A stretch of 64,000 nucleotides of DNA, taken from IMG/VR virus record IMGVR_UViG_3300029101_000001. One strand, 5' to 3'. A program made the position numbers and the translations under genes. Below are positions 7,001 through 44,914 of this stretch, piece after piece (positions within the stretch are counted from its first letter, which is position 1; every line of letters starts with the position of its first letter). The notes under the pieces were generated by a model. It was given only the letters and a program-made list of their open reading frames with translations. It did no database searches and was not told where the DNA came from. Origin of the DNA: a virus.

Positions 7001-10000
7001 CCTGGAAGGATAATAGAAGAGGTTTCCTCTCCAATCTCCTATTCTATTAAATGAATAGCATTATCTTCCTAAGTAGATAAAATCACCTCTAAAGAATTAT
7101 CTTCCTTTAGTTCTATAGTTTTGGAATTTTGGAGACTATTCTTAATCCAATTAAGAATGTTTTTATCAACATCTATATTCTCAATAGCATTATTCAACTC
7201 AACTATAGCTTCATTGATTTTTACTATTTCTTCAGATAGATTATTAATCCCTTTTCTATTAGTATCAATTTCTCGTTGTAAATCCTCCTTCAATACAGAT
7301 ATAGAAGTTCTAATATTGCTTATATCGACTTTCAGTTCTTCTATTGCTTCTGTATTAGATTCATATTCACTAATAAAGTATAGGGCATAGTCTAGGGCAT
7401 CCTTCACAGTATTAATACCTTCTGCAACGTCACTAGTATAGGTCCATTTTTGTTCTATATACTATACTAGGTCTTTTTGCAGTTCTATGGTTCCACTAAT
7501 GTTTCCCCACAATAGACTCTACTCATCAGCAATACCTAAGTTCTTTCTTACTTTAGCTTTTTCTAGTTCTGTCCTATATTCTCCTAAATAGTTATTTCTT
7601 AAGAGAGGTATAGGCTCACATTTTATAGGCTTACCCTTTTTACCACAAGGCACTATATCTGCATTACTTACCGAAGTGTAAATAGACTGTATCATTCTAG
7701 TTTAATAATTGCTATTTAATAAATTCGTGATTATCTAGTCTTACAGGTAGGTTAATAAAACAAATTAGATTAAGAATATCTTGATAATCTGGTTTATATC
7801 CCTTTTTGAGTTTTCTTAGAAAATCCTCATACCTTTTAATAGCCTTTCTCTTAAGAGCATCCACAACCTATACGTTTATGTCCATGGTGGTGATTATCAC
7901 AGAATCCTCCACAGGTACGGAACATCGCTAGTAATCTCTCAGCCTCCATGAATTGTTTAAAGCATATTAAATAATCTATAATGTTAAGAGTCATCCATAT
8001 GAAATCTCGAGCAAATATATCTGCTTCCTAATCTCTAGTTAGACACTTATTTAGTAAAGCATCAAAGAGTTTCTTACAATAATTAATGTAGCACTACTAC
8101 AAGTTTCCTGTAAAGAAAACATCTACCTTACATTTTTTTATAGTAGTTCCTTCTATATTTCGTTCAAGAACTTCTTTAACTGTACACTCTTCTAGCTTAC
8201 CTTCTACTTCTTTATATAATTTTTCTCCATCAGTAACATAGATAGTCTCATAGTATTCCTTGTATTCGTCCGATGAATTTTCATACCATTTCATATTAGG
8301 AATAATGATATGGTCTACTACGTAATAACCATCATCCTTGACCTTAAACATACACGAGTCCAAGTCTTCTGTATGGTCATTAAGTAGGACATCTATCAGA
8401 GTAGCATCGCTTATACTAACTTTGATGATAGTATTCAAGGTAGCACTCTCACTATACTTATAGGAGTCGTAAGAAGTTACTACCTCTACATCTTCATCAA
8501 TATACTAGCCATATTCTTTTGAGAAATCTTCTATCAGTATTTCCCCATTAATTTGGGTATGTATATCAATACTAAATTCCATATTGTAATAATTAAGACT
8601 CAATAGGCCACTAACCATATTGAGCAGGGGTAGAAAAAGGTTTCCATTTACCTGCTTGTCTTATTCGTCTAGACATGAAGACGGAAGTAAATGATAAACT
8701 AATATCTTGAGGATAATCTGTCCAGATATAAGAATATCCATCTGGGGTAGGAGGTAGTTTATCTAGTCCAGAAGAAGGCTGACCATTCCAATAGTAGTTA
8801 TAGTCATATGCCTTTAGAGAAGTAACTTCTGTAGTTTCTTTCCCTTCAGCATCTATATACAGCGGATTTCCGTCCTCATCTGTTTTCTATTTATATTCTA
8901 TAACTGGTGTTATTCCCTCGGTTCTAGTATATATAGTCTATATAATAGTAGAGACATCACTCGCTACTATTTCATAGATAGTAGTTCCCTATGATTCATC
9001 AGCTCCCTAAAAAGTAAATTTAGTTCTTTTCCATATATATGGATTCTCTTCTGTTGGAAGCTCAAAAGTATCAGACCACTACTTACTTGATAGTTTTATT
9101 TCAGATTCATCGGCAGTATTAGCAGGGAGATAATGTATTTTAATAATAATACTATTAACTGCCTCACTTGAACCAGATAAATCTGATACCTACTTAAATA
9201 ATTTTTTTAAGTCGTCTTCTACATTTGATTTAGAACCGGAAGCATTACTTATAATTACTGTCCCATCAGAGATAGGATAAATCTACTGCTAATCTTTGTT
9301 GTATACAATTGTTCCAGTTGCCATATTAATGTATTTGTCTTATTTTGTCATTATATGGATTTCCATCATGAAGCTAAGCCAACTCTATTTCAGTTCTTTT
9401 TTCTTCAATATCCATTTGTCTATCTTTATAAGTAGAATCAGACTGAGCTTTAAGCCAGTTAACTTTATATTCTAACTGCATCTTCTACTATTCTAATCCT
9501 AGTCTCTATTCATCTAAGCTTTCAATCTTTTGCTGAGCTTTCTATAATTCTTGCTATAACTACTGAGCCTATTGAGAAGTTTCTTCTAATTTTTCTTGTA
9601 GTTGCTGAAGCTGATTATTTTCCTCTTTGCGAACTTGAACAGCTTTCTTAACCTTATATTTAAGGTCTGTCAGACTCTTAGATGTAAGAGCCTCAAAAAT
9701 AATATCTGGGTCCATCTGTTGACTTTTTACGAACTCTGGAATGATTGCTTTTATAGTCTATAGATCTTCCATCACTTCTGAACTAGCAGTAATATGAATA
9801 TCGTAGTCAGTAACAGTAAAATACTCAGGAAGTGCGGTGAATATCTGTTGATATTTATCCCCAAGTATAATAGTTCCAGTTAATCCTTTCTTATAAGTAA
9901 CTTTAGCCTAATTAAGACTATCTAGTAGTATCTCGCAGGTTATTAAATCCATCTGCTAAAAATAGTGCTTAGTTACTATATACGAGTTAGCTACTCCCTA

Positions 10001-19905: not shown

Positions 19906-19922
19906 AACTATTAATTTTGGCG

Positions 19923-19994
19923 TTGCCCTACTAGGATTCGAACCCAGACTAAATGATTTAGAGTCATCTGTGCTGACCATTACACCATAGGGCA
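19923..19994 (-). tRNA. amber suppressor tRNA, anticodon CUA, probably charged with Gln
   Basis: Minus-strand cloverleaf: ugcccua ug gugu aauggucagcac a gauga cuCUAaa ucauu uagu cuggg uucgaau ccuag uagggca a. Acceptor, D-arm, variable loop and T-arm nearly identical to the phage tRNA-Gln(UUG) at 34204. Confidence 0.85.
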
Positions 19995-21545: not shown

Positions 21546-22278
21546 CTCTAAGGTACTATGAGTTTTAAATAAAGTGCCCACATGAACCCCATCATCGGAA
21601 CGTTGGTTAACGGGGAAAACAACATCACAACAAATCAAATCAAAGTTTTTGTTTAGTTTTAGGATTATATCTGGCAGCTTGGAAAGACAAGCAAAATCTT
21701 TATACCTATCTGCTAATAGGTTTAGTGTTCAACGCGAAAATTCGGTAAAGGAAGGAGAGAAATTGTCCACTAAAAAGACCCTCAATTTCCGGACTTTTTC
21801 CGATTTTCAAAAAATCCGCCAGAGTAGGAGTTATATAGCTCACACTCTCTATGGACATTATTTAGTATTTAGCCTATAAAAGGCAACAAAAAGCGAGGCT
21901 ACGCAGAAGAGCCTAACACCAAAAATAACTGCTACAAATTCTATGTGCATATTCGCAAACTTGAGCACTATAGGATTTAGGTTGAGCTATAAGGATTGGT
22001 CACTTATAGCAATATTATGAGTACTGCTGATATGTCAGTGACCGTACATATCACATATAAAATATGTTATACAATTATGTTAGAAGTTGCCAGGTCTAAG
22101 AAGCCTGATTAAAATCTCTAGATAGTAAGAGAGAACCTCATAAGGGTTCATTTTCCATCTCGAACCTATTCGCAAGTTTATAGACTAGCTATCTATAAAT
22201 TTAGTGAACGTTGATAACGTCCTCAGCATGGAAAACTGAGAAATAATCTCCTATCTTATTCTAGATATAGATAGGATT

Positions 22279-22345
22279 TCCCTACTGGTATAATGGATTG
22301 CGTCTCCCGCTGGAGAAGATTCTGGTTCAAGTCCAGAGTAGGGAA
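22279..22345 (+). ncRNA. tRNA-like element with a truncated anticodon arm (4-nt loop)
   Basis: Acceptor ucccuac/guaggga, D-arm gguauaaugg, T-arm ucugg uucaagu ccaga. Anticodon arm ucucc-cgcu-ggaga has no 7-nt loop. Confidence 0.35.
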
Positions 22346-22609
22346 CTACTAAGTTGCAATATTCATATTATTGTCGGACCATAATGGGTATGCCCTGAGA
22401 CTATGCAGTTGTTGTGAAATAACTCAAAGTATTGTGGCACAGGAAGGTCTAGTCGTTACCCTTTGCTTATTTTATTAATTTCCATTTTGACTAAAAGGCA
22501 CAGCGGTGCCTTTACTCTCAAGATAAGAACAACCTTTACGTGGTTTGAGAGATAAGTAAGCTGCTTTAGCTGAAACTAATAGTTCTAGTAACAATTAAAA
22601 ATATTTACC

Positions 22610-30077: not shown

Positions 30078-30166
30078 GGAAGGGTGGCAGAGTCAGGTTT
30101 AATGCAACGGTCTTGAAAACCGTCGGGCGGTAAAACGTCCCCAGGGTTCGAATCCCTGTCCTTCCG
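30078..30166 (+). tRNA. tRNA-Ser (UGA), class II
   Basis: acggu cuUGAaa accgu. Long variable arm cgggcgguaaaacgucccc. T-arm caggg uucgaau cccug. Confidence 0.8.
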
Positions 30167-30175
30167 CAATTAACT

Positions 30176-43102: not shown

Positions 43103-43334
43103 GGCCTCTGATATAATCCAACTTAAAGACCTAAAGGATGGGGAATTTGCAGAAGTGATAGAATGGTTTGAGGATGGAACAGTATCTAACGGAGATATAA
43201 TTCAAAGATGTGGACTTGCACTATTTATATTAGGAAGTTGTTCTTACTATCCTGAGATATTTAGTAAGGGTGCTAGAGACTATACTAATACTAAGTTACG
43301 GACACTACCTGAGGGTACAACTATAATGTTATAA
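43083..43334 (+). CDS. hypothetical protein
   Basis: Track ORF. Confidence 0.4.
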   Translation: MAKVVNRASDIIQLKDLKDGEFAEVIEWFEDGTVSNGDIIQRCGLALFILGSCSYYPEIFSKGARDYTNTKLRTLPEGTTIML

Positions 43335-43374
43335 TTTCTTTTTCCAGTTTTCTAATTAAAGATAAACTGGGTAT

Positions 43375-43936
43375 GGGCCTACTTGGATTTGACAGGCGAT
43401 TACAAATTATAAGGACGTGTAGAGCGCAATCTCTTTAAACGAAGAAAAAACAATAAATGCTACTTATAGCGAAGTAAGAATGGCAGCCTAAGCTGCTGGC
43501 TTGTTGGTAAACACTATTAACTAAGTCGGGTTACGGGAGAGACCTAGAAACAGAAGAGGTTGAGTATATTGATATAATGGAGAGCTAGGCTCTAATCCTA
43601 GTAATATGCTCTTAATCAGAACACTCTAAGAGTTAGTAAGACTGAATCTCCTACGTCATAAAACAGATGGAAGATGTGTTCCGTGAGATGTGACGAATCT
43701 CTAAAGTATCATCCCGTTCTCCAACGTAAATGGAGTGGTGGAACGTTGACTTCGGTCAACCCTATAGTTTGGTAGCTTGTAGATAAGCATCTAGAGAAAT
43801 ACTTAGTATGGACTCTTGTAAGACTTATAAAACTACCTAAATGCTAGAACTCCCTAGCTGATATAATAAAAATGAGACGCACGTTATCCTTGTAACGAGG
43901 GTTGTTTGGACACGGGTTCGACTCCCGTTAGGTCCA
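43375..43936 (+). ncRNA. ssrA: tmRNA-like (ssrA-like) RNA, about 560 nt, with tag reading frame 43459-43491 encoding ATYSEVRMAA then TAA
   Basis: 5' GGGCCUACUUGGAUUUGACAGGCG matches the tmRNA 5' consensus GGGGCUGAUUCUGGAUUCGACGGG. 3' end CGAGGGUUGUUUGGACACGGGUUCGACUCCCGUUAGGUCCACA matches the tmRNA T-arm/acceptor, and 43375-81 pairs with 43929-35 over 7 bp. A-rich run precedes a GCU resume codon at nt 85. Confidence 0.6.
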
Positions 43937-43942
43937 CATAAT

Positions 43943-43974
43943 AGGGCTATAGCTCAACTGGTTAGAGCACCACA
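43943..43974 (+). pseudogene. 5' half of a tRNA (acceptor, D-arm, 5' anticodon stem)
   Basis: agggcua ua gcuc aacugguua gagc a ccaca. Complementary 3' half lies at 44623-44657. Confidence 0.4.
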
Positions 43975-43984
43975 TCAATAATAT

Positions 43985-44056
43985 TGGGATGTAGTTTAAC
44001 GGTTAGAACAAGAAACTGATAATTTCTAGACGGCAGTTCAACTCTGTCCTTCCCAA
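43985..44056 (+). tRNA. tRNA-Ile (GAU)
   Basis: ugggaug ua guuu aacgguua gaac a agaaa cuGAUaa uuucu agac ggcag uucaacu cuguc cuuccca a. Confidence 0.7.
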
Positions 44057-44073
44057 CTAATACTGTAAATAAT

Positions 44074-44622
44074 ATGTAGAAAATTTCTGAACAAATCAAA
44101 CAACAAGTAAAAGTTCTTAGAGAAAATGGATATTCTTATGATAAAATATCTGAAGAATTGTCTATTGGAAAAGGTTCTGTTTCTAATATCTGTAAAGAAT
44201 TTGGATTATGCCAAAAGATAGTTGAGCTAACTCCAGAGAAAATTATAGAAGTTTAGAAAATGTATGACGAAATAGGTAACATAAAAGAGGTTGCGAGACT
44301 CTCTGGAATATCCTATAATAGACTTCGAAACGTTATAGTAAGCAAAAAGATAACTCCTAAAACTGGCTACGACAACGTTAAAGAATATAGAAAGCGTACA
44401 AAATAGGAACTAGTCGAGTATAAAGGTGGAAAGTGTTAGATATGCGGCTATAATAGATGTAATGAAGCATTAGACTTTCATCACCTCGACCCAAGCGAGA
44501 AAGATTTCTCATTATCTGGGTAGCACAAACCTATAGAACTTTTAAAGAAAGAGGTAGATAAATGTATACTTCTCTGTTGTAGGTGTCACAGAGAAATTCA
44601 CGCAGGAGTAATTGCGCTATGA
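44074..44622 (+). CDS. HNH homing endonuclease with N-terminal HTH; 5 in-frame TAG codons read as sense
   Basis: By-eye translation ...YKGGKCQ(TAG)ICGYNRCNEALDFHHLDPSEKDFSLSGQ(TAG)HKPIELLKKEVDKCILLCCRCHREIHAG then TGA. Frame is consistent at both ends. Confidence 0.65.
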
Positions 44623-44657
44623 TGTGGAGGTTATCAGTTCAAGTCTGATTAGCCCTA
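44623..44657 (+). pseudogene. 3' half of a tRNA (3' anticodon stem, T-arm, acceptor), begins right after the HNH stop
   Basis: ugugg aggu uaucag uucaagu cugau uagcccu a. Pairs with the 5' half at 43943 in both acceptor and anticodon stems. Confidence 0.4.
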
Positions 44658-44734
44658 CAAAACCGCCAGCTCACGCGGTATATAAGAAAGGATTGCCGGA
44701 CTCGCAGGTGTAACGAGATAAATACCTGCATTTT

Positions 44735-44807
44735 CGAGGCTGTGGTGTAATGGCTTGCATATCACACTGTCACTGTGAAGGTTGGGGTTCGAATCCCCCA
44801 GTCTCGG
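44735..44807 (+). tRNA. tRNA-Asp (GUC), G73
   Basis: ucaca cuGUCac uguga. T-arm ugggg uucgaau ccccc. Exact acceptor/D boundary ambiguous by 1 nt. Confidence 0.65.
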
Positions 44808-44814
44808 CATTTAT

Positions 44815-44887
44815 TCCCCTGTAGTTTAGTTGGTTAGAACACGTGATTTGTAATCTCGAGACCTCGGTTCGAATCCGAGTGGGGGAT
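44815..44887 (+). tRNA. tRNA-Thr (UGU)
   Basis: ucccug/ugggga acceptor with two GU pairs. Loop uuUGUaa. T-arm cucgg uucgaau ccgag. Confidence 0.7.
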
Positions 44888-44914
44888 CTTAACCATTAAA
44901 TTAGATTAATTTTT

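Follow-up and report, generated by a model that had tools for sequence, protein, structure and literature searches.

The DNA analysed here is a 64,000-nt stretch from an uncultivated human-gut phage (IMG/VR record IMGVR_UViG_3300029101_000001), hereafter the window, which carries a large tRNA array with 28 tRNAs detected by ARAGORN. Within this array, one tRNA-Ile(GAU) gene is split into two halves by an inserted cassette that itself contains another tRNA-Ile(GAU) gene and an HNH endonuclease open reading frame (ORF). The 5′ half of the resident gene (allele A), located on the + strand at 43943–43974 (32 nt), covers tRNA positions 1–31 and reads AGGGCTA TA GCTC AACTGGTTA GAGC A CCACA, while the 3′ half, located on the + strand at 44623–44657 (35 nt), covers positions 39–73 and reads TGTGG AGGTT ATCAG TTCAAGT CTGAT TAGCCCT A; both were delimited by reading the sequence. 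The two halves are complementary over the whole acceptor stem (7/7) and the whole anticodon stem (5/5), and the 3′ half alone gives a partial Rfam tRNA match of 16.9 bits. An exact-pattern search of IMG/VR with the 32-nt 5′ half matched 16 contigs, 14 of which, together with GenBank entry MT836666.1, carry the gene uninterrupted. In these 15 related contigs the halves are 100% identical to those of the window and are joined by a 7-nt loop, CTGATAA, and the rejoined halves with this loop form a canonical tRNA-Ile(GAT) scoring 74.3 bits, so that the interrupted gene is itself a tRNA-Ile(GAU). A preliminary description, made from the letters of the window alone, had read the two segments as matching tRNA halves with mutually complementary stems and had proposed a comparison with relatives as a check; the sequence and the 15 intact relatives bear this out, with both halves belonging to one gene rather than being unrelated remnants.

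The cassette, delimited by comparing empty and occupied sites, spans 43975–44622 (+ strand, 648 nt) and stands in place of the loop CTGATAA. From its 5′ end it comprises a leader (10 nt), a tRNA (73 nt), a spacer (16 nt) and an ORF (549 nt). The 5′ junction reads CCACA/TCAATAATATTGGG..., also written CCACA/TCAATAAT..., and the 3′ junction reads ...GCGCTATGA/TGTGG (...CTATGA/TGTGG). The preliminary description had been unable to compose a sensible 7-nt anticodon loop from these junctions, and rightly so, since the loop is replaced rather than merely interrupted. A 5-nt near-repeat, ATAAT/ATGAT, is present at the two junctions, chance or microhomology being the only explanations found for it. 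The inner tRNA-Ile(GAU) (allele B) lies at 43985–44057 on the + strand (ARAGORN; Rfam tRNA, 64.2 bits) and is the only tRNA-Ile(GAU) gene in the window; it would be the replacement copy. Alleles A and B are 66% identical and share the anticodon, with six of the ten anticodon-stem positions differing between them.

The second component of the cassette is an ORF of 182 codons on the + strand at 44074–44622 with an HTH-HTH-HNH layout (helix-turn-helix, HTH), recognised by translation, PHROG and Pfam. It contains in-frame TAG at codons 2, 61, 110, 121 and 149, and its TGA stop at 44620–44622 directly abuts the 3′ half. The content of the insertion was hence found as the preliminary description gave it, namely a tRNA-Ile(GAU) and a 182-codon HNH ORF with five TAG codons lying between the halves (ARAGORN, Rfam, translation). 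The N-terminus carries two helix-turn-helix modules (Pfam HTH_23, 27.5 bits), and the C-terminus an HNH nuclease domain (PHROG 2255, E = 5e-25; Pfam HNH, 16.6 bits, below the cut-off of 21.4). Aligned with six homologues of unrelated phages, the protein has the invariant motifs CxxCGY...FHH...KDF...KKEVDKCIL.C..CH.E.H intact, and the homology continues on either side of the TAG codons, so that these are sense codons and the gene is no pseudogene. The ORF is thus intact and, with its motifs conserved, encodes a putative active endonuclease. The residue inserted at the TAG codons is most likely Gln, because a Gln-derived suppressor tRNA(CUA) on the − strand at 19922–19994 (ARAGORN) resembles the tRNA-Gln(UUG) of the same phage (55/73 identical). 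Homologues of this HNH protein are almost always located within phage tRNA arrays, including those of T5-like phages, where they abut tRNA genes. A search of PDB sequences with the HNH family profile returned no informative relative. The promoter and terminator scan of the locus was uninformative. As a dedicated promoter was not evident, transcription of the ORF probably takes place together with that of the tRNA array, and the 5′ end of the HNH mRNA would then be set by RNase P and RNase Z acting on the inner tRNA.

Some further details of the junctions and of the homologues were observed. The anticodon-stem strands (43970–43977 and 44620–44627) pair three bases further into the insert (CCACATCA ... 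TGATGTGG), the TGA there being the HNH stop codon. The HNH homologues from the tRNA arrays of various unrelated IMG/VR phages (L031–L042; L-numbers label the retrieved stretches of other contigs) strikingly often lie beside tRNA-Asn(GTT), and in L032 the homologue sits between two Asn(gtt) genes. In the T5-like Salmonella phage S124 (L054), annotated HNH ORFs overlap tRNA-Phe and tRNA-Asp.

Three states of the site were found among the relatives, which comprise IMG/VR contigs of ~105–193 kb and MT836666.1 from human faeces: 15 empty, six occupied and 15 degenerate. In the occupied state the cassette has the identical position in six assemblies. An assembly artefact was ruled out by the recurrence of the split arrangement in at least five other independent assemblies (L007/L029, L015/L030, L058, L060 and L061, the paired labels denoting one assembly each). 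The degenerate state is represented by eleven viral and four metagenome contigs, which were obtained by a pattern search with the inner tRNA, by a metagenome scan and, for L047, by a protein search. These loci retain the first 16 nt of the 5′ half, followed by CGA or TGA, allele B and the first ~45 nt of the HNH ORF, and then run straight into the tail of the spacer preceding tRNA-Asp, with the 3′ half gone. Passage from the occupied to the degenerate state needs two deletions, as seen in L047 and L010, one of 22 nt (GTTAGAGCACCACATCAATAAT) and a larger one between AGAGAAA microhomologies. Allele B is the sole tRNA-Ile(gat) in all 13 degenerate loci scanned (3–15 kb each), and since 15 relatives have no 3′ half and only 16 nt left of the 5′ half, the halves are dispensable. 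Judged from these sequence comparisons, the presence of empty, occupied and degenerate sites in one population is the classical homing endonuclease cycle of invasion, fixation and decay.

The cassette is identical over 648/648 positions in the window, in L029 (contig 056908) and in L030 (contig 061465). Between the window and L030 the flanks are 76–81% identical (81% in the transfer-messenger RNA (tmRNA) gene), but positions 43940–44658 agree at 719/719, indicating horizontal spread of the cassette. The identical tract stops at the ends of the tRNA halves, which places the crossovers within or at the halves and fits their acting as homology arms. Two different upstream spacers, of 5 nt and 87 nt, precede the cassette among the genomes.

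The arrangement is not confined to tRNA-Ile. Further split tRNAs were detected with the intron mode of ARAGORN and kept only if neither end belonged to an intact tRNA, as this mode gives many chimeric false positives that join the 5′ half of one tRNA to the 3′ half of its neighbour; a strict regular-expression scan for split tRNAs missed the Asp case. The tRNA-Asp(GUC) gene of the window (44735–44808, + strand, ARAGORN) is intact, an empty target of an HNH and tRNA-Asp cassette. In most relatives it is split by a clean 659-nt insertion at 37/38, with a 2-nt CA ambiguity, which contains a different ORF of zinc-ribbon and HNH type, followed by a tRNA-Asp(GUC) 65% identical to the split one. A 72%-identical version of this Asp cassette occurs at the matching position of a diverged tRNA-Asp in L119, where the halves differ by compensatory pairs. 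All four combinations of presence and absence of the Ile and Asp cassettes exist, with that of the window (Ile occupied, Asp intact) found in no retrieved IMG/VR contig. The tRNA-Ser(UGA) gene at 30078–30167 (+ strand, ARAGORN) is likewise intact in the window, an empty target of a PD-(D/E)XK and tRNA-Ser cassette, and is split in L015 and L063–L067 by a Pfam PDDEXK_5 nuclease gene (36.6 bits) with a further tRNA-Ser(UGA) after it, which is 60% identical to the split one. The sole PDB match of this nuclease is a weak one, 2OST (E = 0.087), which we take to be I-Ssp6803I. Its relatives, down to ~42% protein identity and in unrelated phages, almost always have a tRNA-Ser(UGA) or a long tRNA(CUA) within ~5–40 nt after them, and L069–L075 carry degenerate copies of the insertion. 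With ~24 anticodons in the array, the chance of three same-anticodon nestings (Ile, Asp and Ser) comes to ~7e-5 by our own estimate.

A related insertion of another kind was observed in L076 (IMG/VR 3300045988_054096, 1941–2644), where the anticodon loop of a tRNA-Ser(UGA) holds 613 nt with a PDDEXK_5-like PD-(D/E)XK ORF. This insertion contains a group I intron core (Rfam RF00028, 61.1 bits, gathering score 50, E = 6e-14) at 2382–2585 and is a sibling of the ribozyme-less cassettes of nuclease and tRNA.

The existence of such a sister element, a true group I intron in the anticodon loop of tRNA-Ser, speaks for reading the 648 nt of the Ile cassette as an intron too, self-splicing or protein-assisted, whose excision would restore the outer tRNA; this was the first of three options in the preliminary description. 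Bacterial tRNA group I introns classically lie in the anticodon loop, where this insertion is also found, the end of the endonuclease ORF coincides with the 3′ junction, and the Asp cassette is inserted cleanly at 37/38. However, the search for a group I core that had been suggested alongside that option returned no RF00028 match at E ≤ 10 in 43300–44900, nor any other Rfam ribozyme, and this result is meaningful because the identical search detects the intron of L076. Outside the inner tRNA and the ORF the cassette has just 26 nt (10 + 16), leaving no room for a ribozyme, which needs ~200 nt or more. The insert stands in place of CTGATAA, U33 with a GAU anticodon cannot be put together from the junction nucleotides, and neither junction contains the anticodon GAT. 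Moreover, the 15 relatives with deleted halves keep the inner tRNA alone. An intron is therefore very improbable at this site.

A truly split tRNA, the second option, would have RNase P and RNase Z free the halves by processing the inner tRNA, and these would assemble in trans into a functional tRNA or a tRNA-like particle. The perfect complementarity of both stems with its 3-bp extension, and the 100% conservation of the halves wherever the HNH gene is intact, are what such a molecule would show. The conservation is expected anyway, because every homing event would regenerate the halves from a selected intact gene. The halves hold neither an anticodon loop nor an anticodon, and cofold and fold predictions gave no bulge-helix-bulge at the junctions, which are instead predicted to pair in one unbroken 8-bp helix (CCACAUCA/UGAUGUGG). 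The 3′ half would also remain joined to the HNH mRNA, and the degenerate lineages dropped the halves along with the HNH gene while keeping the inner tRNA. We find trans assembly hardly credible on this evidence. An integrase or insertion-sequence island was also considered and rejected, as the only ORF is the HTH and HNH gene and there is no duplicated tRNA 3′ segment.

Taken together, a mobile cassette has very probably invaded a tRNA-Ile(GAU) gene at this locus, its two components being a foreign tRNA-Ile(GAU) and an HNH homing endonuclease gene of the free-standing type. This reading takes in what is directly observed, namely the anatomy, the three site states, the horizontal spread, the lack of a ribozyme and the recurrent design. 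The third option of the preliminary description, the footprint of a homing endonuclease that destroyed a tRNA gene, stands as far as the invasion is concerned; the destruction is an incomplete account, as the function appears to have been swapped by way of the embedded tRNA-Ile(GAU).

The following course of events is proposed. During co-infection, the HNH protein would cut or nick the anticodon stem-loop, or a site close to it, in the uninterrupted allele A of a related phage, with the two N-terminal HTH modules binding the DNA and the C-terminal HNH domain serving as the nuclease. The break would be repaired by recombination with the cassette-bearing genome, the 32-nt and 35-nt tRNA halves acting as left and right homology arms, and the 648-nt cassette would be copied in. 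The resident gene would be destroyed in this step because its anticodon loop is replaced, the halves staying behind as relics, while the cassette would supply allele B, presumably charged with isoleucine, so that the phage keeps the decoding function and loses nothing. Allele B is presumed to resist cleavage because six of the ten anticodon-stem positions differ. Such a selfish element would cost the phage no fitness and yet do without a self-splicing intron, the replacement tRNA taking the role that the intron has for the sibling nuclease in L076. The five TAG codons, codon 2 included, would tie synthesis of the HNH protein to the Gln-type suppressor tRNA(CUA) of the phage and delay it until that tRNA is available, which parallels a proposal for a recoded intron endonuclease in other gut phages (bioRxiv 10.1101/2021.08.26.457843). 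Once the cassette is fixed, decay of the nuclease gene and of the relic halves would leave allele B as the new resident tRNA.

Several points weigh against this interpretation. The case for cleavage of allele A by the HNH protein draws solely on a genetics-like pattern. Alleles A and B have the same anticodon loop, CTGATAA, and any resistance of allele B would therefore need to reside in the stems or at other positions. Homology arms of 32–35 nt are short for recombination-dependent homing, and the three extra pairs of the 8-bp junction helix have no explanation beyond chance. In addition, allele B together with the HNH gene outside a split gene, which would be the ancestral context, was not found in IMG/VR or in the metagenome collection.

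Since cleavage is deduced, a passive origin was also weighed, in which a segment with a tRNA and an HNH gene was inserted illegitimately and later spread by ordinary homologous recombination, the HNH protein being inactive or otherwise employed. The junctions are not clean, with the loop replaced, and the possible 5-nt repeat ATAAT/ATGAT is compatible with microhomology-mediated capture. Against such an origin, split tRNAs that enclose a nuclease gene and a tRNA of the same anticodon have arisen three times or more, the nucleases being of two unrelated folds, and the pairing of the PD-(D/E)XK nuclease with tRNA-Ser(UGA) is kept down to ~42% protein identity in unrelated phages. The identical cassette is also found across genomes that are just ~80% identical, the catalytic motifs are intact, and the full cycle of invasion, fixation and decay is present. 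We consider a passive origin unlikely, and hold to invasion by a homing cassette.

The Ile, Asp and Ser cassettes may well, in our view, belong to an undescribed class of natural "home-and-rescue" selfish elements in phage tRNA arrays. Members would combine homing endonucleases of at least two unrelated folds (HNH and PD-(D/E)XK) and insertion into the anticodon loop with a carried same-anticodon tRNA, presumed to be cleavage-resistant, that is the functional equivalent of a self-splicing intron; they would interconvert in evolution with group I forms such as L076 and drive a continual replacement of tRNA alleles within phage populations.

Several known systems share parts of this design. I-Ssp6803I reportedly lies within a group I intron of a cyanobacterial tRNA-fMet gene. 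It resembles the cassettes as a nuclease element in a tRNA anticodon loop, and it shares its Pfam family, PDDEXK_5, with the nuclease of the Ser cassette; a self-splicing intron, however, neutralises the insertion both there and in L076, whereas the cassette of the window has an HNH nuclease, no ribozyme and a replacement tRNA. In the so-called genes in pieces, which are said to include nrdA of Aeromonas phage Aeh1, split by mobE, and T4 genes 39/60, a free-standing homing endonuclease gene likewise splits a phage gene in two. The protein fragments there reassemble and are functional, whereas the tRNA pieces here appear non-functional and a replacement is carried. The synthetic HomeR and ClvR drives, reportedly engineered with Cas9 in insects, direct a nuclease against a needed gene and provide a cleavage-resistant rescue copy, as is proposed for the cassette, which would in contrast be natural, protein-guided and at work in phages.

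The PD-(D/E)XK homing endonuclease family of I-Ssp6803I is treated in PMC3384342. Phage T4 likewise has a free-standing homing endonuclease gene among its tRNA genes, that of SegB, whose product targets a sequence conserved in tRNA genes and thereby favours, in co-infections, the inheritance of its own gene and of the tRNA genes beside it (PMC2330249). SegB differs in being a GIY-YIG enzyme that recognises the T-psi-C stem-loop, lies between genes and acts by co-conversion with no split tRNA (PMC2330249), while the cassette encodes an HNH enzyme, is inserted in the anticodon loop and has relic halves on both flanks. A similar layout is seen in those mobile endonuclease ORFs (mORFs) of fungal mitochondria that have a foreign C-terminal segment (Allomyces atp6; Glomus atp6, atp9, cox2 and nad3). 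These insert in essential genes and bring a divergent copy of the displaced part, the native counterpart of which persists as a downstream relic identical to the gene of close relatives (PMC3630166). The same pairing of a divergent copy with a native relic is present here, with the inner tRNA at 66% identity and the outer halves at 100%. The mORFs differ in that they target protein-coding genes, are inserted in frame and replace only the 3′ portion (PMC3630166), whereas the cassette has an RNA gene as its target, resupplies the whole gene and leaves relics on both sides; an in-frame fusion with a protein-coding gene was accordingly not found, the target being a tRNA gene. The full-text literature searched yielded SegB, the fungal mORFs and group I introns of tRNA genes, and no account of a split tRNA gene that encloses both a nuclease and a tRNA with the same anticodon; as this search was incomplete, an earlier description is possible.

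Homing endonucleases are usually said to spare their host by residing in self-splicing introns or inteins or by taking an intergenic position. The Ile locus would represent a third solution, suited to RNA genes, in which the target is destroyed and a substitute is brought along. This would explain "split tRNA" signatures in phages that could be mistaken for introns or for archaeal-style split genes, and it offers nuclease-driven allele replacement as a mechanism by which phage tRNA arrays turn over rapidly and become mosaic. The cassettes would be a source of natural enzymes that probably recognise the anticodon regions of tRNA genes, and a natural counterpart to engineered cleave/home-and-rescue gene drives. 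With three site states and a group I sibling nuclease in one population, they also provide a good system for studying how introns and endonucleases become associated and dissociated.

Other insertions in tRNA anticodon loops were observed that have no inner tRNA or a different layout. L078 (IMG/VR 3300010356_000728, 1953–2426) carries a clean 385-nt insertion at 37/38 of a tRNA-Ser(UGA) with a nuclease ORF alone, no ribozyme match and no inner tRNA; its ORF starts ATG TGA, the TGA apparently being Trp in a TGA-recoded phage. The tRNA-Cys(GCA) of the window at 37863–37937 (+ strand) is intact and, as the comparison with L016 shows, is an empty target of a further HNH insertion: in L016 (− strand, 8897..8334) the anticodon loop of tRNA-Cys(GCA) is split by an HNH ORF with ~9 in-frame TAG codons and no inner tRNA. 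A second tRNA-Cys(GCA) is located in the window at 39574–39649, 1.7 kb downstream of the first. In L044 (IMG/VR 3300025689_000001, 1414–2168) an initiator-like tRNA-Met(CAT) contains a 678-nt insertion at 36/37, and splicing in silico yields a perfect tRNA. A group I core was absent from the Asp and Cys cassettes and from L044 in the Rfam search, the scope of which did not take in the Ser cassette copies L015, L063–L067 and L077; the L030 included in it is a different stretch of the contig of L015.

Directly upstream of the split tRNA, the window carries the tmRNA gene at 43375–43939 (+ strand; Rfam RF00023, 62.2 bits). On the other side, the spacer downstream of tRNA-Ile is an indel hotspot with at least four variants seen. 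In the window this spacer, between the outer 3′ half and tRNA-Asp (44661–44734), has a hairpin, CAGGT...ACCTG, and a 22-nt part of it is missing in L001. It is 97% identical to a segment of the Crassvirales phage cr115_1 (NC_055898, 39049–39122), which precedes tRNA-Leu there and is common to otherwise unrelated gut phages. In L058 (2717–3375) and in L061, both occupied-state contigs from ENA metagenomes, an extra ~660 nt with a small Cys-rich ORF follow directly after the outer 3′ half.

Two unusual tRNA-like elements were also detected elsewhere in the window. One, at 35070–35136, lies right after the tRNA-Met at 34989–35064 and is kept in L004 and L012. It lacks a D-arm and has the acceptor stem GAGCCTA/TAGGTTC, a stem with a 9-nt loop and the T-arm TGGGTTCAAGTCCCAA; it could be the relic of a displaced tRNA or a functional mini-tRNA. 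The other, at 22279–22346, directly follows a RAGATH-14 RNA (174 bits) at 22082–22252 and is an odd tRNA-like gene for which ARAGORN gives a 2-nt "anticodon".

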